64,000 bases of DNA from Pseudomonadota bacterium (GCA_030057915.1 JASGUC010000057.1:48841-112840); one strand, 5' to 3'; counted from the first letter of the stretch, positions 25,553 through 62,479 are shown. Program-made: numbers and translations. Notes: generated from the letters alone by a model not told the origin.

Positions 25553-25604
25553 CCTGGATTCCCGTCGGGAGAATGCGGGGATGACGGAAGGGGGTTTTCG
25601 AGGC
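25553..25604. repeat. Half-unit of the mosaic repeat family (right-arm type, GGGGATGACGG...TTTTCGAGGC)
   Basis: Matches the right arms at 47650-47699 and 54953-55002. It abuts the next full element. Confidence 0.5.
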
Positions 25605-25736
25605 GAGGCCTTTGGAAAACGCCGTTTCCGAGTTCCCGCTGCCATGCCGGCGGAAGGCGGAATGCTATGTTTTCACGGTATTTTCGACCCCGGATAATGC
25701 CGGGGCGGCGGGAAATTGAAGATTTTCAAATGTAGC
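25605..25736. mobile_element. 132-bp TIR-bounded mosaic element, subfamily A
   Basis: GAGGCCTTTGGAAA...GATTTTCAAATGTAGC; collinear with the 35410-35541 copy over its whole length. Confidence 0.65.
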
Positions 25737-26158
25737 GAAGCGATTATGCAAAGGTCACATAATACGCCGGATGGCGCAATCTTTGCTATAGTCATGCCGG
25801 GGTAGATTTGTTCTTCCGGCAAGCGCCTGATTTCATCTGAGAAGCGCCTCTATGTCATTGCAAGAATTGCCAGAGGAAAAATCTATGGGAGATCATATAT
25901 TTTCATCCCGCCTTGTGTCGGGCGCCGTCAGGAAGGTTTCATCTGACCGCAGGGCATGGGGAGACCGCTATTTTCGGCTTATCGGGAAGAGAGCCAATCT
26001 GCCCTGATATTCATGCCCCATGGCCCCGGGATGGGGACGACGGGCAGGCGGACGGGCGTCGTCGCAGCCGCGGGAGCATCCGTTATGGCCGGCGGTTGCC
26101 GAAGACGAGAGGGCCCGCCTTGGGGCAAAAACGAACTGTCCTGTCTAAAGAGGGCTAC

Positions 26159-27523
26159 ATGGCCATGATGCCGTGGCGCATAAATGACTTTCTCCCGCCC
26201 CGGGACGGCCTTTCCCCTTGGGGAATGACGGCGGCGCTGGGAGGGGTTTTGCTGGGCTGCCTGCTTCTTGCCCTGCCGGCGTGGGGGCGGGAGGAGACAA
26301 TCGCCAGGGGCGAAACCCTGGATCTGCAACGCTGTGTCCGGATCGCCCTGGCCAGGCATCCGGCGGTCCTATCCGCGGCCGGCGCCGTCAAGGTCAACGA
26401 AAGCCGTATCGGCCAGGCCCGGGCCAATTACTTTCCCCAGGTGAGCGCCTCGTCCAGTTATTCCCGGATCGATCCCTATGCCACGCCCGTCGGCGACGCG
26501 GCCTCGCAGGCCGGCAATGTTTATAATCAATACGGAAGCAGCGTTTCCCTGAATCAGACCCTCTATGATTTCGGGAAGACGGCGGCCCAGGTGGACGTCC
26601 AGACCCTCAACGCCGGTTATGCCCGCCAGGATTTCAACGACGCCCGCCGTCAGATCGTCTTCGGTGTGAAACACGCCTATTACAGTTATCTCAAGGCCAA
26701 AAGAAACAGGGACGTCGCCGCCGACACGGTCCGGCAGTTCCAGCATCACCTCCTCCAGGCCCAGGGCTTTTTCGAGGTCGGCGTCAAACCCAAGTTTGAC
26801 GTCACCAAGGCGGAGGTGGATCTGAGCAACGCCCGGCTTGGCATGATCAAGGCGGAAAACGAATTCCGGATCGCCCGGGTCAATCTGAACAATGCCCTAG
26901 GTTATCCCGACGCCCCGGATTATGAGGCGGCGGATGTGGGACTCAAGCTGCAAGGTCGGGACCTGGATTTTGACGCCGCCTTGAAACGGGCCTACGACGA
27001 GCGGCCGGATCTCCGGTCGGCGGCGACGAAGCGGGAAGCGGCGGAGAAATCCATCGCAGCGGCGAAGAAGGGCTATTGCCCCAATCTCACGGGTTCGGCG
27101 GGATACGGATGGGGGGGGCGGGAGTTTCCCTGGGACAAGGGCTGGAATGTAGGCGCCACTTTGAGCATCCCCATCTTTACCGGCCTTTCCACGAAATATC
27201 AGGTCGATGAGGCCCGGGCGAGCCTGGAAGTCGCCAAGGCCAACGAGATGACCATCCGCCAGATGATCTACCTGGAATTGAAGCAGGCCTATTCCAACTT
27301 TCAGGAGGCATCGGAGCGGGTCATCGCGGCGGAGACCCAGGTGCGGCAGGCCGTGGAGAACCTGGAGCTTGCCGAGGGCCGCTACGCCTCCGGGGTGGGA
27401 AATGCCATCGAGGTGACCGACGCCCTGGTCTCCCTGAACAACGCCCGGACTTCCCATGCGTCGGCGGTTTACGACTATATGATCGCCGATGCCGGTATCG
27501 AGAAGGCGATGGGGACACTATGA
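26159..27523 (+). CDS. TolC-family outer-membrane efflux protein
   Basis: Signal-peptide-like N-terminus from ATG 26159. Two repeated alpha-helical/beta-barrel halves typical of the OEP family. First gene of the efflux set. The track ORF extends upstream to 25913. Confidence 0.85.
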   Translation: MAMMPWRINDFLPPRDGLSPWGMTAALGGVLLGCLLLALPAWGREETIARGETLDLQRCVRIALARHPAVLSAAGAVKVNESRIGQARANYFPQVSASSSYSRIDPYATPVGDAASQAGNVYNQYGSSVSLNQTLYDFGKTAAQVDVQTLNAGYARQDFNDARRQIVFGVKHAYYSYLKAKRNRDVAADTVRQFQHHLLQAQGFFEVGVKPKFDVTKAEVDLSNARLGMIKAENEFRIARVNLNNALGYPDAPDYEAADVGLKLQGRDLDFDAALKRAYDERPDLRSAATKREAAEKSIAAAKKGYCPNLTGSAGYGWGGREFPWDKGWNVGATLSIPIFTGLSTKYQVDEARASLEVAKANEMTIRQMIYLELKQAYSNFQEASERVIAAETQVRQAVENLELAEGRYASGVGNAIEVTDALVSLNNARTSHASAVYDYMIADAGIEKAMGTL

Positions 27524-28704
27524 AGAAGAACTATCTGCGGACCGCCCTGGGGCTGTTGGCGGTCGTGCTCGCGGCGGCTGTGACGTATGCCCTCCTGCGC
27601 GATGGCGGCAAGGGGCTGAAATACAGAACGGAAAAGGCCACCGCCGGCGACATCCGGGCGACGGTAATGGCCACGGGCAAGATCGACGCCGTCACCACCG
27701 TCATAGTCGGCGCCCAGACCTCCGGGATGATCAAGGCCATCCATGTGGATTACAACTCCCCGGTCAAAAGGGGGCAGGTGCTGGCCCAGATCGATCCGGC
27801 CACCTTTGCCGCCCGGGTCGAGCAGGCCCGCGCCAACCTCATGCTGGCCCGCGCCAATCTCGAGAAGGCGGAGGCGACTCTCCAGGATGCCCAAAGAACC
27901 CGAAATAGATACGAGACCCTCTTTGCCCGCAACCTGGTTGCCCGGAGCGATCTCGATACGGCGCTCACCAGCATGGAGACGGCCCAGGCCCAGGTCAGCG
28001 CCTCCCGGGCCCAGGTCGAGCAGGCCCGCGCCAACCTCAAACAGACGGAAATCGATCTGGCCTACACCACGATCCGCTCCCCCGTGGACGGTATGGTCAT
28101 CTCCCGGAATGTCGATATCGGTCAGACCGTGGCGGCCAGCTTCCAGACCCCCACCCTGTTCAACATCGCCCAGGATCTCACGAAGATGCAGGTGAAGACC
28201 AGTGTGGACGAGGCGGACATCGGCCGCATCCGGGAGGGTCAGCCCGTGGAGTTTACCGTGGACGCCTTTCCCGAGATGGTGTTTCGCGGCGACGTTTCGG
28301 AGGTGAGAAACGCCCCCACGACGGTTTCCAATGTGGTGACCTACGAGGTCATCGTCCGGGTGGACAATCCGGAAATGAAACTCAAGCCGGGCATGACGGC
28401 CAACGTATCCATTATCATCGATCACCGGCAGGGGGTCCTGCGGGTTCCCAGCGCGGCCCTGCGCTTCCGGATGCCCAGTCAGGGGGGGAAGCGGGAGCAG
28501 GGCGGAACCAAGGAGATGCAACTCTGGGTTCTTGCCGGGGAGAAACCACGACGCCTTTCCGTTCGGACGGGGATCACCGACGGCAGTTATACCGAAATCA
28601 CCGACGGCGGCCTGCGGGTCGGCCAGGAGGTGATCGTCGAGGCCTTGGAGGCGAACAAGAAGCAGCCAAACACCGGCGCCCAACCGCCGCGCTTCCTCCG
28701 TTAG
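27520..28704 (+). CDS. HlyD/MacA-type periplasmic adaptor (membrane-fusion protein)
   Basis: N-terminal TM anchor and coiled-coil hairpin (ARVEQARANL... repeated). Conserved IRSPVDGMV and KPGMTANV motifs. ATGA overlap with the upstream gene. Confidence 0.88.
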   Translation: MKKNYLRTALGLLAVVLAAAVTYALLRDGGKGLKYRTEKATAGDIRATVMATGKIDAVTTVIVGAQTSGMIKAIHVDYNSPVKRGQVLAQIDPATFAARVEQARANLMLARANLEKAEATLQDAQRTRNRYETLFARNLVARSDLDTALTSMETAQAQVSASRAQVEQARANLKQTEIDLAYTTIRSPVDGMVISRNVDIGQTVAASFQTPTLFNIAQDLTKMQVKTSVDEADIGRIREGQPVEFTVDAFPEMVFRGDVSEVRNAPTTVSNVVTYEVIVRVDNPEMKLKPGMTANVSIIIDHRQGVLRVPSAALRFRMPSQGGKREQGGTKEMQLWVLAGEKPRRLSVRTGITDGSYTEITDGGLRVGQEVIVEALEANKKQPNTGAQPPRFLR

Positions 28705-28751
28705 CCGTGTCCCCGCCGTCGGTTAGGGCGTGGTTATAACCGGAGGCCTTC

Positions 28752-29501
28752 TTGGCGGTGGCGGCGACGGGCCGCGACCTCGCAGCGTCCTTGCAAACCG
28801 GATCGGGGGAGACCGTGATCGAAGTTCAGGAGCTTACCAAGATCTACCAGGTCGGCGATTTAACCGTGCCGGCCCTCTCCGGCGTCACCCTGACGATCCA
28901 CGGGGGAGAGTTTGTGGCCGTCATGGGGCCTTCCGGATCGGGTAAATCCACCTTCATGAATATCCTGGGTTGCCTCGATCAGCTCACGTCGGGCCGCTAT
29001 CTGCTGGATGGCCTCGATGTCGGCCGCTTCTCCAAGGATGAACTGGCGGAGATCAGGAATCGGAAAATGGGCTTTGTGTTTCAGGGTTTCAATCTTCTGC
29101 CCCGGGCTTCGGCCCAGGAGAACGTGGAACTGCCCCTGCTCTACAGCGGCGTTCCCGCCGGGGAACGGCGTCGCCGCGCCCGGGAGGCATTGATCAGGCT
29201 CGGACTGGAAGGGCGGGAGCACCACCTTCCCAGTCAACTTTCCGGGGGCCAGCAGCAGCGGGTGGCCATCGCCCGGGCCCTGGTCAACGCGGCCCCCCTC
29301 CTGTTTGCCGATGAGCCGACGGGCAATCTGGACACGAAAACCAGCCTGGAGATCATGGAGCTTTTGACCCATCTCAACCGCGAGGGCGGCATTACCCTGA
29401 TCCTGGTGACCCACGAGCCGGATATCGCGGCGTTCAGCCGGCGGGTCATCCGTTTCGTTGACGGCCGGGTGGTGAGCGACCGACGACAGGAAGGGGCGTA
29501 G
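28752..29501 (+). CDS. ABC transporter ATP-binding protein (MacB/LolD-like)
   Basis: Walker A GPSGSGKST, signature LSGGQQQR, Walker B LLFADEPT. The start is uncertain (TTG 28752 or GTG 28815). Confidence 0.9.
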   Translation: MAVAATGRDLAASLQTGSGETVIEVQELTKIYQVGDLTVPALSGVTLTIHGGEFVAVMGPSGSGKSTFMNILGCLDQLTSGRYLLDGLDVGRFSKDELAEIRNRKMGFVFQGFNLLPRASAQENVELPLLYSGVPAGERRRRAREALIRLGLEGREHHLPSQLSGGQQQRVAIARALVNAAPLLFADEPTGNLDTKTSLEIMELLTHLNREGGITLILVTHEPDIAAFSRRVIRFVDGRVVSDRRQEGA

Positions 29502-29504
29502 GGT

Positions 29505-30734
29505 ATGACCGGCCTCCTTGCCACGGTCAGGATCGCCCTCCGGGCCCTATGGGTCAACAAGATGCGCTCCGCCCTCACAATGCTGGGGATCATCATCGGC
29601 GTCGGCGCCGTGATCGCCATGCTCGCCGTCGGGCAGGGGGCCAGTCGGAAGATTTCCGAACAGGTGGCCTCCATGGGGAGCAATCTCCTCATCGTCATGC
29701 CCGGCAGCCTCACCTCCGGCGGCCTTCGCATGGGCAGCGGCGCCCAGATGACCCTCACCCTGGACGACGCCTATGCCATCGAGCGGGAGTGCCCCGCCGT
29801 GGCCGCCGTGGCCCCCATGGTCACCGGGGTCGCCCAGATCGTCCACGGCAACCAGAACTGGTCCACGGCGATCCAGGGCACCACCCCGGGCATCATCCCG
29901 GCCCGGGACATCGCCCTGGTCTCCGGGCGTCCCTTTACGGAGCAGGATGTCCGTGCGGCCGGCAAGGTCGTTATGCTGGGGCAGACAGTGGTGGAAAATC
30001 TCTTCGGGGCGCGCGATCCCGTCGGGCAGATCGTTCGGATCCAGAAGGCGCCCTTCACCGTGATCGGCGTGATGGAAAAAAAAGGGCAATCCCTCATGGG
30101 GCACGATCAGGACGACCTGGCCTATGTCCCCGTGACGACGGCCCAGAAGCGTCTCTTCGGTGCCCACTTTGCCGGTTCCGTCCGCTTCATCCTCGTCAAG
30201 GCCGGCTTGGCGGCGGATATGGAGCAGGCGGAACGGCAGGTAACGGAACTTCTCAAACAACGGCACCGGATCAGCCCGAAAGGGGAGTTGGATTTCACTA
30301 TCCGCAATCTCACCCAGATGCTCCAAGCGGCGGAGCAATCCACCCGGGTCATGTCGCTGTTGCTCGGGGCCATCGCCTCCGTCTCCCTCCTGGTGGGGGG
30401 CATCGGGATCATGAATATCATGCTGGTATCCGTTACGGAAAGGACGCGGGAAATCGGCATCCGCATGGCCGTCGGCGCCAAGGTCTGGGCGATCCGCATG
30501 CAGTTTCTCGTGGAGGCCCTGACCCTCTCTCTGAGCGGGGGGCTGATCGGGATCATCCTGGGCGTGGTCAGCTCGGAGATCCTCTCTCGCCTGGCGGGCT
30601 GGACGACGATCGTCTCTCCCCTCTCCGTCGTGCTGGCCTTCGGTTTTTCAGGTTTAGTCGGCGTTTTTTTCGGCTTCTATCCCGCCTACAAGGCATCGTT
30701 GCTCAATCCCATCGAGGCATTGCGGTATGACTGA
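29505..30734 (+). CDS. ABC transporter permease, MacB periplasmic-core/FtsX type
   Basis: 409 aa with an N-terminal TM, a large periplasmic domain and a C-terminal FtsX-like 3-TM bundle (GGIGIMNIMLVSVTERTREIG). Confidence 0.9.
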   Translation: MTGLLATVRIALRALWVNKMRSALTMLGIIIGVGAVIAMLAVGQGASRKISEQVASMGSNLLIVMPGSLTSGGLRMGSGAQMTLTLDDAYAIERECPAVAAVAPMVTGVAQIVHGNQNWSTAIQGTTPGIIPARDIALVSGRPFTEQDVRAAGKVVMLGQTVVENLFGARDPVGQIVRIQKAPFTVIGVMEKKGQSLMGHDQDDLAYVPVTTAQKRLFGAHFAGSVRFILVKAGLAADMEQAERQVTELLKQRHRISPKGELDFTIRNLTQMLQAAEQSTRVMSLLLGAIASVSLLVGGIGIMNIMLVSVTERTREIGIRMAVGAKVWAIRMQFLVEALTLSLSGGLIGIILGVVSSEILSRLAGWTTIVSPLSVVLAFGFSGLVGVFFGFYPAYKASLLNPIEALRYD

Positions 30735-30997
30735 GGAAACGACGCGGGGAGGCGCTGCCGCATCCTCCTCACCCCCGTCGTCGGAATCGACGACCTCCAG
30801 GAGAGGCGGGGCGGGCCCGCCCATCCACCGGCGCCGCCGGGCGGGGCGTCGCCGCCGCCCGGGTCCGCCGCAAGGGGAGACCTGTGCTTCCCGAAGACGC
30901 TCGATTTCGCTCCTTTCGGGATCTTTCGAGCGGAACGAGGTTGCCCTGGGACCGCCGCAAGGCGAAGGTCGGCAAGGAAACGGCCCGCCGGGTCGGT

Positions 30998-31858: not shown

Positions 31859-31915
31859 AGGTGTTCCCTCCTCTATGTTGTTTCTATAAAAACCTGTTGC
31901 TGGCTACGCGTGGGG

Positions 31916-35409: not shown

Positions 35410-35541
35410 GAGACCTTTGAAAACCGTCGTTCCCAAGTCCCTGTCGTCATCCCAGTGGACGCCGGAATGCTGTGTTTTCAAGTAATTCCCGACTGCGGAT
35501 TTAACCGGGGCGCAAGGAGAACGTAGATTTTCAAAGGTCTC
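35410..35541. mobile_element. 132-bp TIR-bounded mosaic element, subfamily A (best-preserved termini)
   Basis: GAGACCTTTGAAAA at 35410 and its exact reverse complement TTTTCAAAGGTCTC at 35528-35541. It ends 17 bp before tRNA-Ser(GGA). Confidence 0.75.
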
Positions 35542-35847: not shown

Positions 35848-36039
35848 GAGACCTTTGAAAACCGTCGTTTCCAAGTTCTCATCGCCCGGCGGGCCCTGGC
35901 GGATGAGGCCGAAGCCCGGGAGAATCGCCGCGCCTGAGCGAAGGAACCCCGAACCCTCAAGCTTTTCTCATCTCTTTCAAGGTTTCCCGAGCCCGGATTA
36001 TGCCGGGACGGCAGGAAATGGTAGATTTTCAAAACCCTC
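35848..36039. repeat. 192-bp long variant of subfamily A element
   Basis: The left end is identical to 35410 (GAGACCTTTGAAAACCGTCGTT). The right arm CCCGGATTATGCCGGGACGGCAGGAAATGGTAGATTTTCAAAA matches 25690-25730. The centre is diverged and expanded. Confidence 0.55.
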
Positions 36040-36216
36040 CCTTCGTCATGCCCGGGAAAGCGGGCAACCGCCTTTTGTCATGCCCGAGAAGGCGGCAATC
36101 CCGGACATCCTTTCGTCATTCCCGCAATCGCCTGGCGGGAATCCCGTGTTTGCAAGCATCTTCCGGATGCCGTCTTCAGCCCGGCATGACGAGACAGGTC
36201 GTTTTACAAAGGTCTT
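36040..36216. repeat. Array of three GTCAT[GT]CCCG..CGGG hairpin units plus a B-type right arm ending in TTTTACAAAGGTCTT
   Basis: Units at 36043-36068, 36075-36101 and 36113-36144, then TTCCGGATGCCGTCTTCAGCCCGGCATGACG and a TIR-like end. Confidence 0.55.
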
Positions 36217-36660: not shown

Positions 36661-36755
36661 GAGAGCTTTGAGAAACGCCGCATCCTACTCCCCATCGCCC
36701 CATAGGCGTCCCAGCCGAAGCGGAAATACGGCGTTTCCCGGCGTTCAAAGCGCCC
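36661..36755. repeat. Short (95-bp) degenerate member of the TIR repeat family
   Basis: GAGAGCTTTGAGAAAC ... GCGTTCAAAGCGCCC termini, in the divergent promoter region. Confidence 0.4.
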
Positions 36756-38404: not shown

Positions 38405-38989
38405 ATGGGCAACAATTACTATGAAGTGGTTCTCGAGGGTCGCCGGGACTACATCGACGGATTTGTCCACGGCTTGATCGCCGGCCGGGGAGGGGAGGGG
38501 GACGTCTTTTTCGGTAAGGATCTGAGGATCGACGAAGAACGCCCGCTGGAAATCCTGGGACGCTTGGCGGGCCTTCGGGGAGAGCATACGACGCTCGTGG
38601 TGGAGAAGGTCGTCCTGGACATGCTGGAAGAGGCGCTCGGCATGGGCCGCCGGGAAGGGCCGATGCGGCTGGTCTCCGCACGGAGGATCCGGGAGGCGTC
38701 GTTTACTTATGCCTTCGTCACCTTTTCCCGGGAAACCGGGGCCGCCCTCGATGCGATCCTGTCCGCGCTCCCTCCCGGGGTTTTCGCCGCGCCGCCCTAC
38801 GCCCCGGCATACAGAGAAACGCCGGAAGGTCAGGGGGTAGAGGCCTACGCCCCCCTGCACGACTACGAAATGAAGGCGGCGGGACGCATCCGGGGGGAAT
38901 GCGGAGGGGTCTGCCGCTGCCACGAACTCCTGAGTCGCCACGAGGTGGTGGAACTCGGGCCGATGGAGCTTGGCCGCACGGAGGCGTAG
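38405..38989 (+). CDS. Hypothetical protein, 194 aa, no family recognised
   Basis: AGGAGG lies 8 nt upstream, and the gene starts 15 nt after the transporter gene. Codon usage is like its neighbours. C-terminal CGGVCRCH motif. Confidence 0.6.
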   Translation: MGNNYYEVVLEGRRDYIDGFVHGLIAGRGGEGDVFFGKDLRIDEERPLEILGRLAGLRGEHTTLVVEKVVLDMLEEALGMGRREGPMRLVSARRIREASFTYAFVTFSRETGAALDAILSALPPGVFAAPPYAPAYRETPEGQGVEAYAPLHDYEMKAAGRIRGECGGVCRCHELLSRHEVVELGPMELGRTEA

Positions 38990-39056
38990 CGAAACGGTTG
39001 CCCGCCGCCATGGCACCGTCGGGGGCTTGTCGGGACCAAGTGCTTGGGGGGCTTTC

Positions 39057-40400
39057 ATGAATGGAGACGCCGATCCTTGCCGCGAGGGCTTTCTCTCGTC
39101 GTTGCGGGACGAATTCCTGGTCAGCCGGGACGATGCCCGAGGGATGATCGCCGATTTTCATGAGGAGATGCGCCGGGGCCTCGCCGGGCGACCCAGCTCG
39201 CTGTCCATGCTTCCCACCTTTGCGGGCCGGCCCCGGGGAACGGAGCGGGGGCGCTCGCTCTTCCTCGACCTGGGCGGCACGAACGTCCGGGTCGGGCAGG
39301 CGGCCCTGGACGGCCAGGGGCGGGTCGAACTGGCGGCAGTAGAAAGAACCGTCCTTCCCCGGACAATCATGAGCGCCTCGGCCACGGAATTGTTCGATTT
39401 TCTCGCCGGTTGCGTGGATCGTTTCCTCCTGGAGCGGGGTCTTGACGACCGGCGGCCCCACGATCTCGCCTTTGCCTTTTCCTTTCCCCTGGAGCAGTCG
39501 TCCCTCCTTTCCGGACGGCTGGTAAACTGGACCAAGGGCTTTACGGTCCCCGGCGTGACGGGTGAAGATGTGGTGGCGCTGCTCCGGGCGGCCCTGGCGC
39601 GTCGGGGTCGGGAGGGGATTCGGATCGCCGCCCTGGCGAACGATGCGGTGGGAACGCTGGCCGCGGGAAGCTACGCCGATCCAGCCTGCGATCTTGGCGT
39701 GATCCTCGGCACGGGAACCAACGCCTGCTATTACGAGAGGACGGAACGGATCGAGAGATGCCGGGGCGACGTTGCCGTCGGGGAGATGATCGTCAATGTG
39801 GAATGGGGCAACTTCGACCGGCTCCGGGCCAATCCCTGGGATGAACTCCTGGATCGGTCCACCCATAACGCCGGCCGGCAGCGATTGGAAAAGATGATCT
39901 CCGGCATGTATCTGGGGGAGCTGGCCCGGCTGGTCATCGTGAAGGCCGCGGCGGCGGGCTTGCTCCTCCGGGGGGCGAACCATGCCGCCGTTGCGACCCC
40001 CCATGCCTTGACGGCGGAGCGTCTGGCGGTGGCGGTTCGGTCCGCCGACCCCGCCGGCGCGGTGGGTATTGAAGGTGCGGCCCCGGCGGACGGAGCGGTG
40101 GTGGCATGGATATGCCGCCTGGTCGCCGTCCGGGCGGCCCGCCTGGCCGGAGCGGCGATCGCCGCCGTGATTTCCTGGCGGGATGCGAATCTCGAAAGGG
40201 GGCATGTCGTGGCGATCGACGGGTCCCTGTTCGAGAGATTTCCCGGCTTCCGGGAAAACATGCGGGAGATGTTGCGGGAATTGTTCGGCCCCCGGGCGGC
40301 GGGGATCGAATTTCGGCGCGTCAGGGACGGTTCGGGCATGGGGGCCGCCGTCGTCGCCGTCGTGGGCCCCCGGACCGGAGGGGGTGCCGGGGCATGCTGA
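39057..40400 (+). CDS. Hexokinase-family sugar kinase (eukaryotic-type hexokinase fold)
   Basis: LFLDLGGTNVRV, FAFSFPLEQ...LVNWTKGFTVPGVTGEDVV, ALANDAVGTL, ILGTGTNACYYE and VNVEWGNF match the hexokinase signature blocks. Internal ATG of track ORF 38970-40400. Confidence 0.85.
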   Translation: MNGDADPCREGFLSSLRDEFLVSRDDARGMIADFHEEMRRGLAGRPSSLSMLPTFAGRPRGTERGRSLFLDLGGTNVRVGQAALDGQGRVELAAVERTVLPRTIMSASATELFDFLAGCVDRFLLERGLDDRRPHDLAFAFSFPLEQSSLLSGRLVNWTKGFTVPGVTGEDVVALLRAALARRGREGIRIAALANDAVGTLAAGSYADPACDLGVILGTGTNACYYERTERIERCRGDVAVGEMIVNVEWGNFDRLRANPWDELLDRSTHNAGRQRLEKMISGMYLGELARLVIVKAAAAGLLLRGANHAAVATPHALTAERLAVAVRSADPAGAVGIEGAAPADGAVVAWICRLVAVRAARLAGAAIAAVISWRDANLERGHVVAIDGSLFERFPGFRENMREMLRELFGPRAAGIEFRRVRDGSGMGAAVVAVVGPRTGGGAGAC

Positions 40401-43261: not shown

Positions 43262-43391
43262 GAGGTCTCCGAGAATCCACGCCATCCTGTCGCCCCGGCA
43301 AAGACCGCGCCAGAACACCTTGAAAACTCTGTATTCCCGATTTCGCCGGCATGACGGCGGGGGGTCTGAAGCGGCGCTTTTCAAAGGCCCC
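43262..43391. mobile_element. 130-bp TIR-bounded mosaic element, subfamily C
   Basis: GAGGTCTCCGAGAATCCACGCCATCCTGTCGCCCCGGCAAAG... aligns with 47568-47699. The right end is TTTTCAAAGGCCCC. Confidence 0.6.
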
Positions 43392-47567: not shown

Positions 47568-47699
47568 GAGACCTTTGAAAATCCACCCATTCCTGTCGCT
47601 CCGGCAAAAGTCGGACTCCAGGACGCCTTGCCAACGCCTTATTCCAGCTTCCACGGGGATGACGACAGGGAGTCGGATAAGGATTTTTTCGAAGGTCTC
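47568..47699. mobile_element. 132-bp TIR-bounded mosaic element, subfamily C
   Basis: GAGACCTTTGAAAA ... TTTTTTCGAAGGTCTC. The interior is CCTGTCGCTCCGGCAAAAGTCGG plus CCACGGGGATGACGACAGGGAGTCGG. Confidence 0.7.
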
Positions 47700-50284: not shown

Positions 50285-50416
50285 CCGGCCGCTCAAAACC
50301 CCGGGGGAAGAAACCGCGAGTCGCCCGAGGTGTCAACCGTTCGTTGAAAACCCGGCCTTCCGGCTTCGGCCGGGGCGACGGCAGGGCGTCGGTAACAGCG
50401 TTTTTCCAAGGGCGAG
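50285..50416. repeat. Degenerate subfamily C element, inverted orientation
   Basis: CTTCGGCCGGGGCGACGGCAGGGCG is the reverse complement of the CCTGTCGCCCCGGCAAAAG module. It ends in TTTTTCCAAGGGCGAG and shares GAG with the next element. Confidence 0.45.
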
Positions 50417-50695
50417 ACCTTTGAAAAACTGCCGCCCATGCCCTGTCGGGCCTGACCCGGGATCCAGAAGATAGTTGAAGACACGAGAGCCTTGAAAATC
50501 TACGCTTTCCCGTGGCCCCGACCAAAACCGGCTTCCAGAACATCTTGGGAACACGGTATTGGTCTTCCACGGGGATGACGACAGGGAGTCGGATACGGAA
50601 TTTTTCAACGGCGTTTTCCCAAGGTCTCGACACCGGATTCCCACCTTGCCGGGAGGGGCCACGGGGAGGACACAACGGGGTTTTGCAAAGGCCTC
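50414..50695. mobile_element. Subfamily B element (inverted orientation) split by a nested insertion; reconstitutes to 133 bp
   Basis: 50414-50484 and 50634-50695 align end to end with the reverse complement of 54819-54952. GACAC is duplicated at 50480-50484 and 50629-50633. Confidence 0.75.
50485..50628. mobile_element. 144-bp subfamily C element nested inside the subfamily B copy, flanked by the 5-bp duplication GACAC
   Basis: GAGAGCCTTGAAAA ... TTTTCCCAAGGTCTC. The interior aligns with 47568-47699. Confidence 0.75.
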
Positions 50696-52916: not shown

Positions 52917-53040
52917 GAGGCCTTTGAAAAATGCCGCCTCCGAGTTCCCGTCGTCATGCCGGCGGAAGCCGGAATGCTTTGTTTCCAAGGTATTCCCGTT
53001 AAGGCGGCGTTGGAAAGCACGGGACTTTGTTCAAGAATCA
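52917..53040. mobile_element. 124-bp subfamily A element with a degenerate right terminus
   Basis: GAGGCCTTTGAAAAATGCCGCCTCCGAGTTCCCGTCGTCATGCCGGCGGAAGCCGGAATGC is collinear with 25605 and 35410. It begins 6 nt from the MFS start codon. Confidence 0.6.
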
Positions 53041-53138
53041 CGCCCATGGCCCTGTTTGTCAACCCCGGAAGCCGCTGAACAAGTCCCGGGTCCAGGGCGG
53101 TGGAATTGCCCGGGCTGCCCTTTCGAAAACGGTCTTGA
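53041..53138. repeat. Degenerate B-like repeat remnant
   Basis: GCCCATGGCCCTGTTTGTCAACCCCGG resembles the B arm GCCCATGCCCTGTCGGGCCTGACCCGG. It ends in TTTCGAAAACGGTCTTGAC. Confidence 0.3.
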
Positions 53139-53163
53139 CAAATGAACCCAGCTTCTGTAAGTC
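53135..53163 (+). promoter_or_regulatory. Candidate sigma-70 promoter (TTGACA-N17-TAAGTC) facing a roughly 410-nt leader
   Basis: Motif match only. The -35 box is partly contributed by the repeat remnant. Confidence 0.3.
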
Positions 53164-53474
53164 TGGATACACAATTGTAAATCTGCCTTCCAACCAAATC
53201 GACCGCCGGGGGGCATCGGGCGTTTCGCATCCCGATTGTATTCCCGCCGGCGGTTATTGCCGTTCCCTCGACGATAGGCGTCGGCGCTTCATCGTCGAAG
53301 GATTGGATCCGTCAAGATCTTCAAGGCCCCGAAATCGGGGAATCATCCCGGGGGAGATCCCAAGCCCCGGAGGAAACGGGTGATCCGATGCGGCCCGACA
53401 AGGGGACAATGACCCGGCGCCAGACCGTGTCCCTGGGGCGCAAAAACAAGGAGGGAGGCCGTGCCGGACGCGGA

Positions 53475-53543
53475 GAGACCCGGGGTGTTCCGGATCCCGG
53501 TTTTGGCCGGGGTTGCGGGGCTTTATGGTTTTTCAAAGGTCAC
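53475..53543. repeat. Half-length (69-bp) B-type element
   Basis: GAGACC joined directly to the right arm GTTCCGGATCCCGGTTTTGGCCGGGG...GGTTTTTCAAAGGTCAC. Confidence 0.5.
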
Positions 53544-53573: not shown

Positions 53574-53786
53574 ATGGGAGAGGAAAAAAAGGCATGCCCC
53601 TTCTGTGGGAAAGAGGTTATCACCCTCTACACCTGCTCCGGTTGCAGCGGCGAGGTCTGCGAGGCCTGCCACCACCTCGAACTTGTCGGGTCGGGCTGCG
53701 GCACCGTCATCCCCCTTTATTACTGCCCGAAATGCGCCTTCGATGAGAAGGTGAATCCCAACGCCGGCCTCAAGGACGAATGGTAG
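53574..53786 (+). CDS. 70-aa cysteine-rich protein with four CxxC pairs (double zinc-ribbon-like)
   Basis: MGEEKKACPFCGKEVITLYTCSGCSGEVCEACHH...YYCPKCAFDEK. AGGAGA SD 8 nt upstream. Internal ATG of track ORF 53388-53786. Confidence 0.6.
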   Translation: MGEEKKACPFCGKEVITLYTCSGCSGEVCEACHHLELVGSGCGTVIPLYYCPKCAFDEKVNPNAGLKDEW

Positions 53787-54262: not shown

Positions 54263-54395
54263 GAGTCCATTTCGATACCCAGTTGTGTCCTCCCCATGGT
54301 TCTTCCCGGGAAAGGGGGGAGCCAGTGTATTCAACTATTTTCCGGATGCCGGGTCAGGCCCGGCAAGGCATGGACGGCGGTTTTTCAAAGGTCTC
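54263..54395. mobile_element. 133-bp TIR-bounded mosaic element, subfamily B
   Basis: GAGTCCATTTCGATACCC...CCAGTGTATTCAACTATTTTCCGGATGCCGGGTCAGGCCCGGCAAGGCATGG...TTTTTCAAAGGTCTC. Confidence 0.7.
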
Positions 54396-54678: not shown

Positions 54679-54818
54679 GCCCCCTCCTGTCAAGGAACGG
54701 TCCGAAAAAAAACCCAGCAGCCTTTTTATGGGCTCTGGGTGATGCGGCCAAAACCGAAACAAAAAAACTGAAAGACCTATAAGCCCTTGCGCCGCTCGTG
54801 TCAAGTCATATCTTTTGT

Positions 54819-54952
54819 GAGGCCTTTGCAAAACCCCGTTGCGTCCTCCCCCTGGGCCTTCCCGAAAAAGTGGGGAAACCAGTGTCTTCGACTATTTTCT
54901 GGATGCCGGGTCCAGCCAGGGAGGGCATGGGCGGCAGTTTTTCAAAGGTCTC
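54819..54952. mobile_element. 134-bp TIR-bounded mosaic element, subfamily B (reference intact copy)
   Basis: GAGGCCTTTGCAAAAC ... GTTTTTCAAAGGTCTC; central GTGTC-TTCGA at 54882-54891. Confidence 0.75.
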
Positions 54953-55002
54953 TTCCCGGGGATGACGGAAGGGGGTTGGTGAGGCAATTGTTCAAGGGTC
55001 TC
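54953..55002. repeat. Half-unit (right-arm type)
   Basis: TTCCCGGGGATGACGGAAGGGGG...TTGTTCAAGGGTCTC; near-identical core to 25570-25604. Confidence 0.5.
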
Positions 55003-55035
55003 GCCCTATCGATATTTCCACGGAATGTCAAGGGG

Positions 55036-56286: not shown

Positions 56287-56333
56287 ATCCCGGCCTTCTC
56301 TCCCGGCCGCCCATCCCTCGGCAGGTCTCCCCC

Positions 56334-56744: not shown

Positions 56745-56905
56745 ATGGGCCGGTTTACGAGTCAGTCTGGGGCATTGCCTGCGTGCCTATCGCATTTACG
56801 TCATCCCGCCCGGCGGCGCGGAAGGGGGAATCGCCGCCGTCGTTTCTTCCCATGAAAAATCCCGTGACCATTTGGGTGTTGTCATCCTTCGCCCGCGCCT
56901 GTCCC

Positions 56906-57253
56906 GAGGCCTTTGCGAAACCCCGTCGCGTCCTCCCCATGGCCCTTCCCGGGTAAGTGGGAAACCAGTGTCTTCAACCCAAATTTTCCATCAGGAGGTT
57001 TCCGCCCTCTCTAGGCGACGCCGCAGATGGCGGCGGCAAGGATTTCCGGATGCTGTCTCAAGGAAACCATCAGAAATTCTTTATCGATTTCATTATGTCT
57101 CCTTCGCCATGCGACCCGTTGGCCCATGACCCAGGGGCGTCGCGCCATGAATCATGGACCCGTGAACCATCCAATAGAAAATTTGGGTTCAAATATTCTC
57201 TGGATGCCGGGTCATGCCCGAGAGGGCATGGGCGGCGGTTTTTCAAGGGCCTC
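56906..57253. mobile_element. Subfamily B element split by a 210-bp insertion of a different TIR family; reconstitutes to 133 bp
   Basis: 56906-56977 and 57193-57253 align with 54819-54952. TTCAA is duplicated at 56973-56977 and 57188-57192. Confidence 0.75.
56978..57187. mobile_element. 210-bp MITE-like element, second family (TIR CCCAAATTTTC / GAAAATTTGGG), 5-bp duplication TTCAA
   Basis: Perfect 11-bp terminal inverted repeat that extends imperfectly to about 25 bp. Lower GC than its surroundings. No long ORF. Confidence 0.75.
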
Positions 57254-57306
57254 GCCCCAGGCACGGGGGTTGGTTGCAAAAGATGTCCGGGAGGGGCCAG
57301 ACGCGA

Positions 57307-57756
57307 TCAGAGGGAGTATATCTCGTCACCGACGAAGTTTACCCAGTGCTGGCTCAGGATCTCCACGGCCCGTTCGATGCGGTCGCAGCCGATGATTATG
57401 ATCGTTTCCTTGCCGAGGCGTTCGATGGTGGTATAGATGTAGTGGATGTTCACGTCGCCTTCCGCCAGGGGCTTGACGATGGCGTTCATGCCCCCGGGAT
57501 GGCAGGGCGCCTCCACGGCGATGACGGGATCCACCTGAATATTGAAATTGAAGCTCTCCAGGATGGTGACGGCCTTCTGGGGATCGTTGACCACGACGCG
57601 GACGGTGGAATGTTCCTCGGTGCTGGCCGCGGATATGGCCTTGACCTTGATGTCCTCCTTGTCCAGGATGTCCACCAGTTTGGTCAAGGCCCCCGGAACG
57701 TTGTCCAGCCTTACGGAAACCTGTTGAATAGCCATGGCTTGAAGCGTCTCCTTCAT
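57307..57756 (-). CDS. ACT-domain protein
   Basis: 149 aa with two ACT-like beta-alpha-beta-beta-alpha-beta repeats (VSVRLDNVPGALTKLVDIL; ...VEAPCHPGGMNAIVKPL). Last gene of the oxidoreductase operon. Confidence 0.75.
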   Translation of the reverse strand: MKETLQAMAIQQVSVRLDNVPGALTKLVDILDKEDIKVKAISAASTEEHSTVRVVVNDPQKAVTILESFNFNIQVDPVIAVEAPCHPGGMNAIVKPLAEGDVNIHYIYTTIERLGKETIIIIGCDRIERAVEILSQHWVNFVGDEIYSL

Positions 57757-58289
57757 GTCTGCAATTCGTAGCCTGCGGCGAAGGCCTTGCGATTGATCTC
57801 CATGGCCGCCTTTTTTCTCTCCCCCAGGATGTGCTTGAGACCCTTGAGAAACGCCTCAGGGGGGAGGAGGCCCGTTTTCCTGATGAAGGCCCCCATCATG
57901 ACGATGTTGAGCACCTGGGGATTGCCCAGTCGCTCCGCCAGGTCCCCCACGGGAACGGCATGGATCTGGACGTCCTTCCGGGTCGGCCGGGCGTCGATGA
58001 TGGAGGAGTTGAGAAAGATGTCCCCGCCCGGGGCGACGCGGTTCTGGAAGGTGAAAAGGGACGGCTTGTTCATTACCACCAGGTGATCCGGTTCCGAGGC
58101 GATAGGGGAGGCGATCTCTTCGTCCGACACGGCCACGGTGCAGTTGGCCGTGCCGCCCCGCACCTCGACGCCGTAGGAAGGCAGGTAGGTTACGTGGAAG
58201 CCCTCGTTCATTGCCGCATGGGCGTAAATGTAGCCCATCATCAGAACTCCCTGGCCTCCGAAACCGGCGAAGATGGTCTTCTTGATCAT
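57753..58289 (-). CDS. 2-oxoacid:ferredoxin oxidoreductase, gamma subunit
   Basis: MIKKTIFAGFGGQGVLMMG... typical POR/KOR gamma N-terminus. ATGA overlap with the beta subunit. The track ORF extends to 58454. Confidence 0.88.
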   Translation of the reverse strand: MIKKTIFAGFGGQGVLMMGYIYAHAAMNEGFHVTYLPSYGVEVRGGTANCTVAVSDEEIASPIASEPDHLVVMNKPSLFTFQNRVAPGGDIFLNSSIIDARPTRKDVQIHAVPVGDLAERLGNPQVLNIVMMGAFIRKTGLLPPEAFLKGLKHILGERKKAAMEINRKAFAAGYELQT

Positions 58290-59041
58290 GATGTCGGCGC
58301 CTGCGCTTTCAAGTCCTTGATGACCCCTAAGGGGAACTCCTTCGCCATCGTTTCCGTAACCCACCGACAGGCGTTCACGGGGGTCATCTTCCAGTTGGTC
58401 GGGCACTGGGAGAGGATCTCGACGAGAGAGAACCCGGCGCCGTCCATCTGGCACTTAAAGGCCTTCTTGATCGCCCTTTTGGCCCTTGTGATATTGGCCG
58501 GGCTGTTGACGGCGCAGCGCTCGATATATCGGGTTCCGGGGAGCTGGCCAAGGATCTCACTCAAATGGATCGGATGTCCGTCCAGGAGGGCCGAGCGGCC
58601 CGGCGGCGTGGTGGTGGAGACCTGCCCCAGGAGGGTCGTGGGGGCCATTTGGCCGCCCGTCATGCCGTAAACGGCATTGTTGATGAAGATCACGGTGATG
58701 TTTTCGCCGCGGTTGGCGGCGTGCATGGTTTCCGCCGTGCCGATGGCCGCCAGATCGCCGTCGCCCTGATAGGAGAAGATGATCCGGTCGGGAAGGACGC
58801 GCTTCATCCCCGTGGCGACGGCGCAGCCCCGGCCGTGGGGGGCCTCGAGCATATCGACGTCGAAGTAGTTGTAAGCGATGACGGCACAGCCCGCCGGGGG
58901 GATGCCGATGGCCCGGTCCTGGATGCCCAATTCGTCGATGGCCTCGGCGATGAGGCGGTGGGTGATGCTGTGGCCGCAGCCGGCGCAGTAGTGAAATGCG
59001 GCTTTCTTCAGAGATTTCGGGCGGCTGAATATATTCTTCAT
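58286..59041 (-). CDS. 2-oxoacid:ferredoxin oxidoreductase, beta subunit (TPP-binding)
   Basis: CAGCGHS..., GDGD...GTAE and NNAVYGMTGGQ thiamine-diphosphate motifs; 251 aa. Confidence 0.9.
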   Translation of the reverse strand: MKNIFSRPKSLKKAAFHYCAGCGHSITHRLIAEAIDELGIQDRAIGIPPAGCAVIAYNYFDVDMLEAPHGRGCAVATGMKRVLPDRIIFSYQGDGDLAAIGTAETMHAANRGENITVIFINNAVYGMTGGQMAPTTLLGQVSTTTPPGRSALLDGHPIHLSEILGQLPGTRYIERCAVNSPANITRAKRAIKKAFKCQMDGAGFSLVEILSQCPTNWKMTPVNACRWVTETMAKEFPLGVIKDLKAQAPTS

Positions 59042-59042
59042 G

Positions 59043-60090
<1,048 letters not shown>

Positions 60091-60098
<8 letters not shown>

Positions 60099-60300
60099 GG
60101 TACACCTCTATGGCGACTTCGGGACATACCACGGCACAGAGGGCGCAGCCGTTGCAGTCGGCGTCTTCCTTCAACTCGATGGGATGGAAACCCTTGGAAT
60201 TCAGTTCCGCGGCGGGGCGGAGGTTTTGATTTTTACAGACCGTCGTGCACAGGAGGCATTCCTTGCAGAATTCCCCGTCGATTTTTATCGTTCCCTTCAA
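60091..60300 (-). CDS. 2-oxoacid:ferredoxin oxidoreductase, delta subunit (2x[4Fe-4S] ferredoxin)
   Basis: 69 aa with CKECLLCTTVC and CNGCALCAVVCP cluster motifs. Confidence 0.88.
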
Positions 60301-60393
60301 GGGCCATTGTCTCGCTTGTCGATTGATTTTGGACGATACGGCCCAAGCTTCTTACCCAAATCCCGACCAATGTCAAGCTTAAATTTGCGGAAA

Positions 60394-60897
60394 TCAAAGC
60401 CTGGCCACGCGAAACCCCTCCAATTTGATCGCCACGGAGCGCTGCATCAGTTCGATGGTGACGACAAACAGCTCCTTTTCCATGTCGGCCTCCACCACGA
60501 GCCCCTCGATCCCCTGGAAGGGGCCATCGATGATCTTGGCGTACTCTCCCACCTTGGGGTACTGAAACTGCTGGACCTCCACCCGGGAAGCGACGATGCG
60601 CATGATGGCGTCGATCTTGGCGTCGGGGATCGGGATGGGCTCCGACCCGTAGGGCTTTCCCAGGATGCGCACCACGCCGAAGGTCTTGAGGATTTCCACC
60701 TTCGTTTCATTGTCGATGTCCTCCACGGCCACGAAGAGGTAGCCTGGAAACATGGGTACCATGATCTTTTTGCGGCGGTCCTTCCGTTTGCTCCAGACCT
60801 CGATCTTGGGGAGGAAGGTCTGGAAGGACTTCTGCGTCAGTCCCAAATATGCCCGGTCTTCGTGACGACTTCTCGTATGGATGGCATACCACGCCAT
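60394..60897 (-). CDS. Specialised NusG paralog (NGN + KOW; UpxY/LoaP/RfaH-like transcription antiterminator)
   Basis: MAWYAIHTRSRHEDRA...MVPMFPGYLFV (NGN) and KVGEYAKIIDGPFQGIEGLV (KOW). GAGGGTG SD before ATG 60897. It is not the housekeeping nusG, which sits with secE-rplK elsewhere. Confidence 0.85.
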   Translation of the reverse strand: MAWYAIHTRSRHEDRAYLGLTQKSFQTFLPKIEVWSKRKDRRKKIMVPMFPGYLFVAVEDIDNETKVEILKTFGVVRILGKPYGSEPIPIPDAKIDAIMRIVASRVEVQQFQYPKVGEYAKIIDGPFQGIEGLVVEADMEKELFVVTIELMQRSVAIKLEGFRVARL

Positions 60898-60914
60898 AAA
60901 CCGCACCCTCTTTC

Positions 60915-61121
60915 AAGACTTTTGAAAAACTACCCTTTCCTGTCGCCCCGGCAAAAGGCCGGGGTCCGGGACATCGGGCAGGCACAGGGGCCTGCTATAC
61001 ATCGGGCAGGCACAGGGGCCTGCTATACATCGGGCAGGCACAGGGGCCTGCCCCTACACAATCTTCCGGCTTCGGTCGGAGCGACGACGGAGAGTGCCAA
61101 GCGGCGTTTTTCAAAGCTCTC
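60915..61121. mobile_element. 207-bp subfamily D element carrying three tandem 28-bp hairpin units
   Basis: AAGACTTTTGAAAA ... TTTTTCAAAGCTCTC. The interior has CCCCGGC-AAAAG-GCCGGGG, then 3 copies of CATCGGGCAGGCACAGGGGCCTGCTATA. Confidence 0.7.
60972..61055. repeat. Tandem array, 3 x 28 bp, each unit a GGGCAGGC-ACAGGG-GCCTGCYC hairpin
   Basis: Units at 60972, 61000 and 61028. The first two are identical; the third differs at its end. Confidence 0.85.
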
Positions 61122-61178
61122 CTCAATTGGGGTCGTCGCCTCCCCGTCGCGGCGGCTCTGCCGCGGCGGCGGGACGGC

Positions 61179-62195
61179 TCAGTAACAGTAGGGCGAGGGA
61201 AGGTCCTTCACCGTGATCAGCCCCGGCTTGGCGTCCAGCACCGCCGGAATGGAGTTTACCAGCACCGCCGCCGTGGCCTGATCGCCGGCGACGCCGCCCT
61301 CGATCGTCAAGCTGATGTCCGGAGTGCCCACGATCCTAATCGCGTCGTGAGGGTCGGGGGCCCCCACATACATCCGGAGTTCCAGGGTCAGGAACTCCTT
61401 TCCGTCCTTGATCCCCTTGGCGAGGTGTTCGATCCCCGCCACGTCACCCGGCTTGATCTCGAAATAGTCCGTCCGGATGGGATGCGTGGCGATTACCGGG
61501 GCCACCGATTCCTCCACGAGGTCCACGGACCGGCCGAGTTTGTCGATGATCAGGTGGAGGGATTCCCGGAGCCCCACATGGCCCAGGGCCTTTTTGTCTA
61601 TCTCCCGCTGGAACCCCTCCACGGTCATGCCCGCGCCGATCTTCCTCTGTAGGGCGTAGCGCCGGGTGGCGGCGTCCACGACGCGACGGACGTGGATCTC
61701 CCGCACTTCCTGGCAGACGCCAGTGAGAAACAGCGGCAGGGCGTCCATGACGAAGCCCGGGTTGACCCCCGTCCCCAGGACGGTGACCCGTTTTTCCGTA
61801 GCCAGGAGATGGATCCGCTCCGCCAGGATCGCGTTTTCCGCCGAGGGGAAGAGCAGCTCTTCACTGGCGGAGACGATATTGATCCGGTTTTCGAGGATAT
61901 CCTCGAACTGCTGGTAGATGGATGGAATCCGTGAACTGGTGGTGTGAATCGCCACGTCGGCCTTGATATCGGCCAGGAGTTCCCGGGGCCGGTCGCTGAC
62001 CTTCACCCCTAGCGGCGCCGGCAGCTTCAGCAACTCCCCCAGATCCTTTCCCGCCAGACGCGGGTTGGTATCCACGGCGCCGACGATGGCCAGCGTCTCC
62101 TTCTTGAGAATGGCCCGGACCGTTTCCAGGCCGATATATCCCAAACCGTACTGAACGACCCGAATCTTTCTCTTCTTCGTAAAAGCCTTCTGCAT
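61179..62195 (-). CDS. NAD(P)-dependent amine dehydrogenase family protein (DapB-like N-terminus; 2,4-diaminopentanoate dehydrogenase-like)
   Basis: KIRVVQYGLGYIGLETVR Rossmann start and ...VTVLGTGVNPGF. 338 aa from ATG 62195. The track ORF's upstream 68 codons run through a repeat. Confidence 0.7.
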   Translation of the reverse strand: MQKAFTKKRKIRVVQYGLGYIGLETVRAILKKETLAIVGAVDTNPRLAGKDLGELLKLPAPLGVKVSDRPRELLADIKADVAIHTTSSRIPSIYQQFEDILENRINIVSASEELLFPSAENAILAERIHLLATEKRVTVLGTGVNPGFVMDALPLFLTGVCQEVREIHVRRVVDAATRRYALQRKIGAGMTVEGFQREIDKKALGHVGLRESLHLIIDKLGRSVDLVEESVAPVIATHPIRTDYFEIKPGDVAGIEHLAKGIKDGKEFLTLELRMYVGAPDPHDAIRIVGTPDISLTIEGGVAGDQATAAVLVNSIPAVLDAKPGLITVKDLPSPYCY

Positions 62196-62300
62196 ATTCC
62201 CATCATCCCCTGTTTTCCGAAAAAAGCGCATCCCCGGCGCCCTGAAGGCCGCGAGTTCCTCTCTCATCGGCGCGGTGGAATGTCTTGGCGCCCCTGCCTC

Positions 62301-62479
62301 GAGACCCTTGAAGATATGCCCTTTCCTGTCGCCCCGGCAAAAGGCCGGGGTCCGGGACATCGGGCAGGCACAGGGGCCTGCCATACATCGGGCAGGCACA
62401 GGGGCCTGCCCCTACACAATCTTCCGGCTTCCGCCGGCATGGCGATGGGACGCCTGAGGCGGCGGCTTTCAGAGGTCTC
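62301..62479. mobile_element. 179-bp subfamily D element with two 28-bp hairpin units; overlaps the ribD 3' end
   Basis: GAGACCCTTGAAGA ... GCTTTCAGAGGTCTC. About 110 bp are near-identical to 60931-61070 except for unit number. Confidence 0.7.

Follow-up and report, generated by a model that had tools for sequence, protein, structure and literature searches.

A dispersed family of short inverted-repeat elements, probably IS5-type MITEs, in the chromosome of a Syntrophales-like bacterium

What are the short, GC-rich palindromic repeats that crowd the intergenic spacers of a contig assigned to a Pseudomonadota bacterium (GCA_030057915.1, JASGUC010000057.1:48841-112840)? The whole stretch analysed here, 64,000 nt long, is called the window, and the repeats in question lie mostly between its positions 25,553 and 62,479. 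An initial annotation had described them as a blend of miniature inverted-repeat transposable elements (MITEs), with terminal inverted repeats (TIRs) and a constant size, and of mosaic palindromic repeats. We conclude that the copies are probably non-autonomous MITEs of a single family of about 132 bp, mobilised through ends of the IS5 type (ISNme1/ISPg1).

The two strands of the window together contained 17 matches to GAGRCCTTTGAAAA at one mismatch or fewer, compared with 0.00 expected from 100 dinucleotide-preserving shuffles, which excludes a chance origin. Copies are non-coding, 130–144 bp long and each bounded by 14-nt TIRs, GAGRCCTTTGAAAA...TTTTCAAAGGYCTC, that are mutual reverse complements; degenerate termini (three or more mismatches) were found at the left ends of the copies at 43262 and 54263 and at the right end at 25736. 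With an nhmmer profile of nine window copies, searched across the window, we recovered 15 full, nested or split copies and six fragments, in agreement with the 20 or more copies or fragments first claimed. A single copy lies at 14047 and all others within 25.5–62.5 kb. After 25.4 kb the repeats cover 2,353 bp (6.1%) of the remaining 38.6 kb, less than the roughly 3 kb of the earlier estimate. On a rough gene map, elements were present in 11 of the 17 intergenic gaps longer than 80 bp, and two further elements overlapped calls of open reading frames (ORFs).

Once oriented to the copy at 47568-47699, all copies aligned colinearly from end to end at 60–87% identity, and they thus form one diverged family present in both orientations. 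The shared plan runs from a 14-nt TIR through a spacer (about 15 nt), hairpin 1, the centre CCAGAA..CTTGAAAAC, hairpin 2 and a further spacer to the second TIR; it did not change when copies from four other metagenome-assembled genomes (MAGs) were added to the alignment. The initial annotation had instead proposed a mosaic of interchangeable hairpin modules with subfamilies A–D, similar to repetitive extragenic palindromic (REP) sequences and bacterial interspersed mosaic elements (BIMEs). This part of the description did not survive the alignment, which revealed one architecture. The hairpins it quoted do exist, at homologous positions of the copies rather than as shuffled modules: CCCCGGC-AAAAG-GCCGGGG and GGATGCCGGGTCAGGCCCGGCAAGGCAT are both hairpin 1, and GTCATGCCGGCGGAAGCCGGAATGC is hairpin 2 on the opposite strand. 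They had looked like different modules because copies were compared in opposite orientations. The copies at 54263 and 54819 and the outer copy at 50414 form a subgroup with 81–87% identity, the other copies being 60–72% identical, and such subgroups are diverged lineages rather than recombinants. The near-constant length is accounted for by common descent with few insertions or deletions.

The most direct sign of movement is a copy nested within another. The inner copy (50485-50628, plus strand, 144 bp), which had been taken for part of a chimera, sits at the centre of the outer copy (50414-50695, plus strand) between perfect GACAC pentamers, and its excision together with one of the pentamers leaves an element of 133 bp with 87% identity to the copy at 54819-54952. 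When the 5 nt on each side of 12 window copies were compared, 41 of 60 positions matched, versus 15 of 60 in a register-shifted control. Among the matches listed from other genomes, 100 copies showed a perfect 5-bp direct repeat in 35 cases and a repeat with at most one mismatch in 62; both controls gave 2 of 100.

An empty orthologous site was found as well. In all seven contigs from other Syntrophales-like populations that encode an identical InfA, the map-infA spacer measures 65 bp and holds no element, whereas in the window it is filled by the copy at 14047. The empty site reads ...TCGAAAAGG followed by ATCAA..., and the window reads ...TCGAAAAAGG, the 133-bp element, GAAGG and then ATTAT.... 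This one site is a clean pair of filled and empty orthologous sites with a 5-bp duplication, obtained by the comparison of relatives that had been proposed as a check. The InfA of the source organism is also identical to that of several Syntrophales MAGs. Further empty-site comparisons through the RRM and ACT-domain proteins retrieved only short contigs of the same organism, as did an attempt to extend beyond the window through the RibD and S12 proteins. Identities of 60–87%, together with decayed ends and duplications, indicate that most window copies are old.

With 5-bp target duplications, a nested insertion and a filled-versus-empty site all in hand, the MITE half of the original description is upheld. 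The other half would have the repeats spread as REP/BIME-type sequences by a REP-associated tyrosine transposase (RAYT), and it draws on their being intergenic, GC-rich, palindromic and clustered (35848-36216 and 50342-50695). However, 132-bp units with 14-nt TIRs and 5-bp duplications are not products of REP/RAYT transposition, a Pfam scan of window ORFs revealed no Y1 transposase, and the copies align colinearly instead of forming mosaics of short units. The TIR-bounded 132-bp unit and its duplications exclude REP/BIME repeats moved by RAYT, an explanation to which we assign almost no probability.

The paired termini are not confined to this contig. One scan of a genome collection recovered them at more than 112 loci (loci are labelled with L throughout). 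Among the matches listed, to which the counts for this collection refer, nearly all loci belonged to Desulfobacterales, Syntrophales/Syntrophaceae or 'Deltaproteobacteria' MAGs with a GC content of 38–60%. Copy length was 142 nt in 75 of 100 copies, with a second cluster at 131–133 nt. Copies from the LacPavin, UBA6112, bin_41 and GWC2 MAGs (L078, L116, L060 and L086) matched the window profile with E-values from 4e-28 to 3e-11. Some elements were detected on contigs binned as archaeal (Bathyarchaeota, 'archaeon SMAG_U14205') or as Calditrichaceae (L020, L033, L035, L048 and L065), which could reflect mis-binning or true cross-phylum spread.

Which transposase could serve these ends? The initial annotation had seen none in the window, and our searches concur: no transposase domain was detected in the 38 window ORFs with Pfam results (19.0–63.6 kb), and tblastn with an IS5 transposase produced no match there. 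The 112 MITE-bearing loci contained no pairs of termini 700–3000 bp apart that would mark a parent element, and orphan termini lay beside ordinary genes. Known IS5-family termini include those of ISNme1 from Neisseria, GAGACCTTTGCAAAA/TTTTGCAAAGGTCTC, and of ISPg1, GAGACCATTGCA/TTCAAAGGTCTC (PMC4596501, Table 2). An IS1106 transposase query, 95% identical to Neisseria proteins, returned homologues from Neisseria only, which makes that list uninformative.

A search anchored on the element end was more productive. In three of three environmental IS5 elements the DKGY codons lie 407–408 nt from the right end, and we scanned a metagenome collection for GAGACCTTTGAAAA-N(393-423)-rc(DKGY), where rc denotes the reverse complement. 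Fourteen of the 21 matches were complete elements of 1320–1327 bp with the left inverted repeat (IRL) GAGACCTTTGCACAAT and a right inverted repeat (IRR) ending in ...ATTTTTCAAAGGTCTC or ...CCATTTTTCAAAGGTCTC. In nine of these the ORF is intact and specifies a DUF772/DDE_Tnp_1 transposase of 360 aa, which shares 96% identity with 'transposase ISPg1 [Tannerella]' and 72% with an IS5-family transposase of P. gingivalis; the remaining five carry shortened or disrupted ORFs. An ISPg1-like element of 1325 bp ends in exactly TTTTCAAAGGTCTC, so that its IRR is the MITE 14-mer, with similarity extending to about 17 nt. Perfect 5-bp repeats (tgttc, aggat, ataat and aaaaa) flank elements of this kind, among them L133, L137, L138 and L150, and a second IS5-group element, L127, is bordered by the duplication ACTCC/ACTCC. 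The MITE 14-mer, present at one end, and an identical duplication length tie this IS5 branch to the MITEs. The full-length ISPg1-like elements themselves are Bacteroidota elements and not the parent in this lineage.

A possible local relative of the parent, and the best candidate we have, is L149 (Ga0302245_1038243), a 1.3-kb contig with a degenerate IS5-type transposase gene that has suffered an internal deletion and a frameshift and that ends exactly in TTTTCAAAGGTCTC. It abuts a GTCATTCC...GGAATGAC hairpin repeat, and its transposase is just 35–45% identical to the other IS5 transposases collected. Viral contigs scanned with the DNA pattern and with the L149 transposase fragment yielded nothing. 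Three environmental IS5 clades were judged related but not parental, their ends being AAGACCGATGCA, AAGACCGCTGCA or AAGACCTTTGCA. Three more clades, of low GC content (about 33–36%) and with AAGACCGTTGCA ends, were also rejected as the parent; their contigs carry no taxonomy, and the low GC, the neighbouring genes and the Bacteroidota names of related transposases indicate that they probably come from Bacteroidota. The initial annotation could assign no named family. Termini of the ISNme1/ISPg1 type now place the repeats with IS5. No parent element was found in this lineage, which is the chief weakness of the explanation.

The following mechanism would account for the copies. A DDE transposase of the IS5 family (DUF772 plus DDE_Tnp_1, ISNme1/ISPg1 branch), presumably encoded elsewhere, would recognise the TIRs, excise or copy the element and insert it at a staggered 5-bp cut, producing the 5-bp target-site duplication. 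Insertions that disrupt genes would be removed by selection, which would explain why copies gather in intergenic spacers and inside one another. The repeats and their TIRs, the 5-bp duplications, the nested insertion, the one empty site, the wide distribution in Desulfobacterota and the occurrence of IS5-family elements with the same terminus and duplication length are direct observations; which transposase mobilises the family in this organism, and whether any copy is still active, can only be inferred. As the 14-mer is essentially that of elements in Neisseria and Porphyromonas, the pairing of transposase and end appears very ancient and broadly distributed. Full-text literature searches turned up no description of this Desulfobacterota family; as an IS5-type (ISNme1/ISPg1) MITE it is undescribed and otherwise ordinary bacterial mobile DNA.

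The interior of the element raises a question of its own. It carries two inverted hairpins of the type GTCAT-stem-loop-stem-AAT(C). In the better-kept copies of other MAGs the two hairpins read CGTCATTCCGGCGAAGGCCGGAATCCAG plus its inverted partner, and the stem centres covary between genomes (CCGGC/GCCGG, CCTGC/GCAGG, CCCGC/GCGGG); most hairpins in the window are degenerate, with broken stems. The hairpins resemble the Neisseria sequence NTS, CGTCATTCCCGCGMAVGCGGGAATCYRG, which contains dRS3 (PMC11893778, Nat Commun 2025). The same paper describes Ssn-related motifs (SRMs), which are widespread across phyla, linked to ssnA and cut as single strands by small GIY-YIG nucleases; MITEs go unmentioned in it (PMC11893778).

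One alternative is therefore that the hairpins are the functional units, that is, SRMs for a GIY-YIG nuclease of single-stranded DNA (ssDNA) encoded elsewhere, and that the IS5-type ends are a mere vehicle, a view compatible with the MITE reading. A relaxed NTS-like pattern, GTCATNCCSGNGRAAGCNGGAAT with at most three mismatches, matched nine times in the window where 0.1 matches were expected, always within copies. Hairpins such as CGTCATTCCGGCGAAGGCCGGAATCCAG in the L078 and L086 copies satisfy the published strict SRM expression (the degenerate HGTCWYN(0-2)YYVSBRHN(0-5)WNVSBRGN(0-2)RNCYNB), and these matches are joined by the covarying stem centres. Yet the strict expression occurs at only two sites in the window versus 0.78 expected, and the broken stems of most window hairpins speak against the idea too. 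A crude motif scan found no GIY-YIG-like ORF in the 64-kb window, a small GIY-YIG ORF in the related locus L038 has no flanking hairpins, and the resemblance is one of sequence alone. We consider this alternative unlikely; that the likeness to the Ssn target reflects function at all, perhaps as a second functional layer, is a lead and only slightly less doubtful.

The inverted pair of NTS-like hairpins was also observed without GAGACC termini, beside TTTTTACGAGNCCATCAAAG-like sequences (L010:90-290, L057:4560-4760 and 6520-6680, L100:6760-7000). The pair may thus travel in more than one kind of carrier.

The 142-nt copies form a sister family (L005–L115, e.g., L054:772-913), with 88 copies in about 60 MAGs and a mean identity of 85%, that is absent from the window. 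It folds as one long hairpin, with RNAalifold energies of -50.9 versus -22.1 kcal/mol on the two strands. The same strand folds better in 88 of 88 copies, owing to conserved U·G pairs at several positions of the arms. Paired states account for 97% of cells in the alignment, and compensatory double changes affect 25 of 51 pairs; the 165 compensatory cells compare with 33.5 in column shuffles and 19–35 in slid controls. The covariation and the one-strand wobbles point to selection on a folded single strand (RNA or DNA), which a plain MITE model does not predict.

These properties of the sister family speak for reading the repeats as a structured cis-acting RNA that happens to be repeated and that might stabilise transcripts, be cut by RNase III or act as a terminator. 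Elements also fold end to end through their TIRs, and some ends look like a hairpin followed by a T-run. The window copies, by contrast, have only a modest folding advantage over shuffles (z = -0.6 to -4.3) without a consistent strand asymmetry, and terminator-like sites are not enriched (19 versus 17.6 expected). Copies occur in both orientations, and relative to neighbouring genes the 142-nt family shows no orientation bias (15 same, 11 opposite, 40 unclear). The copy within the ribosomal-protein operon cannot be a strong terminator, given its position there. Searches of Rfam 15 with the window, its densest region and related loci retrieved only the two tRNA-Ser genes at gathering score and nothing relevant at E ≤ 1. 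As an RNA element would also leave the target duplications and the empty site unexplained, we regard it as improbable.

Several observations nonetheless weigh against an IS5-type MITE pure and simple. This lineage, the 64-kb window included, yielded no autonomous element with such ends, and a tblastn search of MITE-bearing Desulfobacterota loci totalling about 770 kb detected no IS5 transposase. Bacteroidota are the source of the full-length matches, whose IRL is different (GCACAAT) and whose similarity to the MITE ends fades after about 17 nt. The copies in the window supply just one empty site and one perfect duplication, and most of them may be ancient and immobile, judging by their appearance. 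Finally, both internal hairpins persist from genome to genome with compensatory changes in their stems, the length is held at 130–134 or 142 nt, and the sister family shows very strong strand-specific covariation; a model of plain junk MITEs leaves these three points unexplained. A fuller picture, which we put forward tentatively and think unlikely as a whole, would be that of a TIR-bounded carrier spreading Ssn-type hairpin pairs across Desulfobacterota by DDE transposition, its 142-nt branch having additionally been domesticated as a structured element (RNA or ssDNA). Were this true, MITE transposition would offer SRM repeats a concrete means of multiplying; should the Ssn link fail, the copies would be ordinary decayed mobile DNA.

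All seven copies that the initial annotation had listed as intact are present at the positions given there, with lengths of 130–134 bp. The first (14047-14179, plus strand, 133 bp; nhmmer E = 4e-29) occupies the map-infA spacer of the ribosomal-protein superoperon, where it is probably transcribed through, and has the flanks AAAGG/GAAGG. The next (25605-25736, minus strand, 132 bp; E = 1e-31) has the degenerate right terminus already mentioned and the flanks GAGGC/GAAGC; it is abutted by a weak plus-strand fragment (25552-25597, model positions 68-108, repeat family D11; E = 1.7). A 132-bp copy with two perfect 14-nt termini (35410-35541, minus strand; E = 3e-33) lies between the two tRNA-Ser genes. 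Beyond it, also on the minus strand, are a 192-bp copy with about 60 bp of added interior (35848-36039, model positions 2-132, flanks CTTTC/CCTTC; E = 4e-14), two tandem hairpin-2 fragments (36036-36102, model positions 71-106), one of which holds a strict SRM motif (36044-36071), a copy lacking its distal end (36102-36216, model positions 2-109; E = 7e-18) with the strict SRM/NTS-like hairpin CGTCATTCCCGCAATCGCCTGGCGGGAATCCCG, and a half copy (36661-36738, model positions 63-131; E = 8e-9).

The plus strand carries the 130-bp copy at 43262-43391 (left terminus degenerate; E = 1e-28) and the 132-bp orientation reference at 47568-47699 (E = 7e-33), followed by a half copy (50342-50411, model positions 59-128; E = 9e-10) that abuts the outer copy of the nested pair. 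The outer copy, 133 bp without its insert and broken at the centre, has the flanks AGGGC/AAGGC, was matched by nhmmer at model positions 1-70 (50414-50484) and 66-132 (50629-50695), and is 82–87% identical to the copies at 54263 and 54819; the right terminus of the nested copy is partly duplicated. A split minus-strand copy consists of a distal part (52917-52998, model positions 51-132; E = 1e-17) and a proximal part (53485-53543, model positions 1-59; E = 2e-7). Two full minus-strand copies follow, one of 133 bp (54263-54395, flanks GTGGC/ATGGC; E = 1e-29) and one of 134 bp (54819-54952; E = 9e-33), the latter abutted by a plus-strand half copy (54953-55002, model positions 83-132; E = 1e-4). 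The minus-strand copy at 56906-57253, with outer flanks GTCCC/GCCCC and nhmmer matches at model positions 53-132 and 1-65, is split at its centre by a different TIR element of 210 bp.

The last two copies, both on the plus strand, carry a central minisatellite with the 28-bp unit ACATCGGGCAGGCACAGGGGCCTGCTAT, repeated 2.9 times (60971-61051) in the copy at 60915-61121 and 1.9 times (62357-62410) in that at 62301-62479, with 100% matches. They are sisters, 84–91% identical (the second detected as repeat families D3/D8 and by nhmmer), and flank the gene at 61179-62399 in direct orientation. A NusG-like gene on the minus strand (60394-60906) has its longest-ORF start 9 bp from the end of the first copy. 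That start is a GTG at 60906, and the real one possibly lies further downstream. If the GTG is the real start, the promoter and leader of the NusG-like gene lie in or beyond the copy at 60915-61121.

All four interruptions of copies fall in the central CCAGAA..TTGAAAAC segment (model positions of about 50-72), which suggests that this segment is a hotspot of insertion or instability. The interruptions are the nested copy (50484/50485), the second MITE (56977/56978), an insert of about 480 bp (52998/52999) and the minisatellite (60987-61055). The unrelated 210-bp element (56978-57187) has perfect 11-bp TIRs, CCCAAATTTTC/GAAAATTTGGG, and a perfect 5-bp duplication, TTCAA/TTCAA; it is single-copy in the window, and four short-read contigs of the organism end inside it, at about 57138. 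The insert of about 480 bp (52999-53484) is unrelated non-coding DNA that splits the copy at 52917-53543. It has an imperfect 9-bp direct repeat, GTATTCCCG/GTGTTCCGG, at its bounds, lacks terminal inverted repeats and lies upstream of a small Cys-rich ORF starting at 53575.

The window is otherwise ordinary core chromosome, with the S10-spc-alpha ribosomal operons, cysS, a MacAB-TolC-like pump, nrfHA-like cytochromes, a 2-oxoacid:ferredoxin oxidoreductase and the two tRNA-Ser genes. An ORF at 38970-40400 contains both hexokinase domains, PF00349 and PF03727 (E of about 1e-54 to 1e-61); the hexokinase family with both domains is eukaryote-type and uncommon among bacteria. Contigs assembled from short reads of the same organism stop within copies, at 52955, 54848 and 62391-62402, as expected where a genome-wide repeat breaks the assembly. 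The copies thus explain assembly breakpoints in this Syntrophales-like organism, along with spurious ORFs that overlap intergenic repeats, and they add an IS5-type (ISNme1/ISPg1) MITE family for Desulfobacterota.

Among known systems, the Neisseria ATR, a type II MITE, and its proposed parent ISNme1/IS1106 have a near-identical terminus, GAGACCTTTGCAAAA versus GAGACCTTTGAAAA here (PMC4596501, Table 2). ATR and the window family are both short, non-coding, intergenic and multi-copy, and the transposase type is DUF772 plus DDE_Tnp_1 there and presumably here too; their host phyla, interior sequences and lengths differ. With about 180 bp, ATR is longer and AT-rich, whereas the window copies are 132 bp, GC-rich and equipped with two hairpins. 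The BrickBuilt/MITEPgRS elements of P. gingivalis, associated with ISPg1 (IS1126), have the TIRs GAGACCTTTGCA...TGCAAAGGTCTC, and ISPg1-like elements end in TTTTCAAAGGTCTC with 5-bp duplications. BrickBuilt also carries an internal minisatellite, like the copies at 60915 and 62301, but is defined by it, whereas in the window family only two of about 15 copies have one. The similarity is confined to the termini, and the BrickBuilt host belongs to Bacteroidota.

The Correia elements (CREE), ERIC/IRU and RUP are classic bacterial MITEs of about 100–150 bp with TIRs, intergenic, nested or clustered, and able to fold into long hairpins. Their termini, duplication lengths and presumed transposases differ from those of the window family, Correia elements duplicating TA. 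REP/BIME sequences are likewise intergenic palindromic repeats, but they lack TIR-bounded units and target duplications, both of which the window family has, and are spread by RAYT. The internal hairpins are REP-like in flavour, yet judged by their sequence the closest relative is the Neisseria NTS/dRS3 type of SRM. NTS/dRS3 and the SRMs share the hairpin consensus type GTCAT-TCCsss-loop-sssGGA-ATCCAG with the window family, in which the hairpin pair is inverted and enclosed in a TIR-bounded, duplication-flanked unit, and most of its hairpins fail the strict motif.

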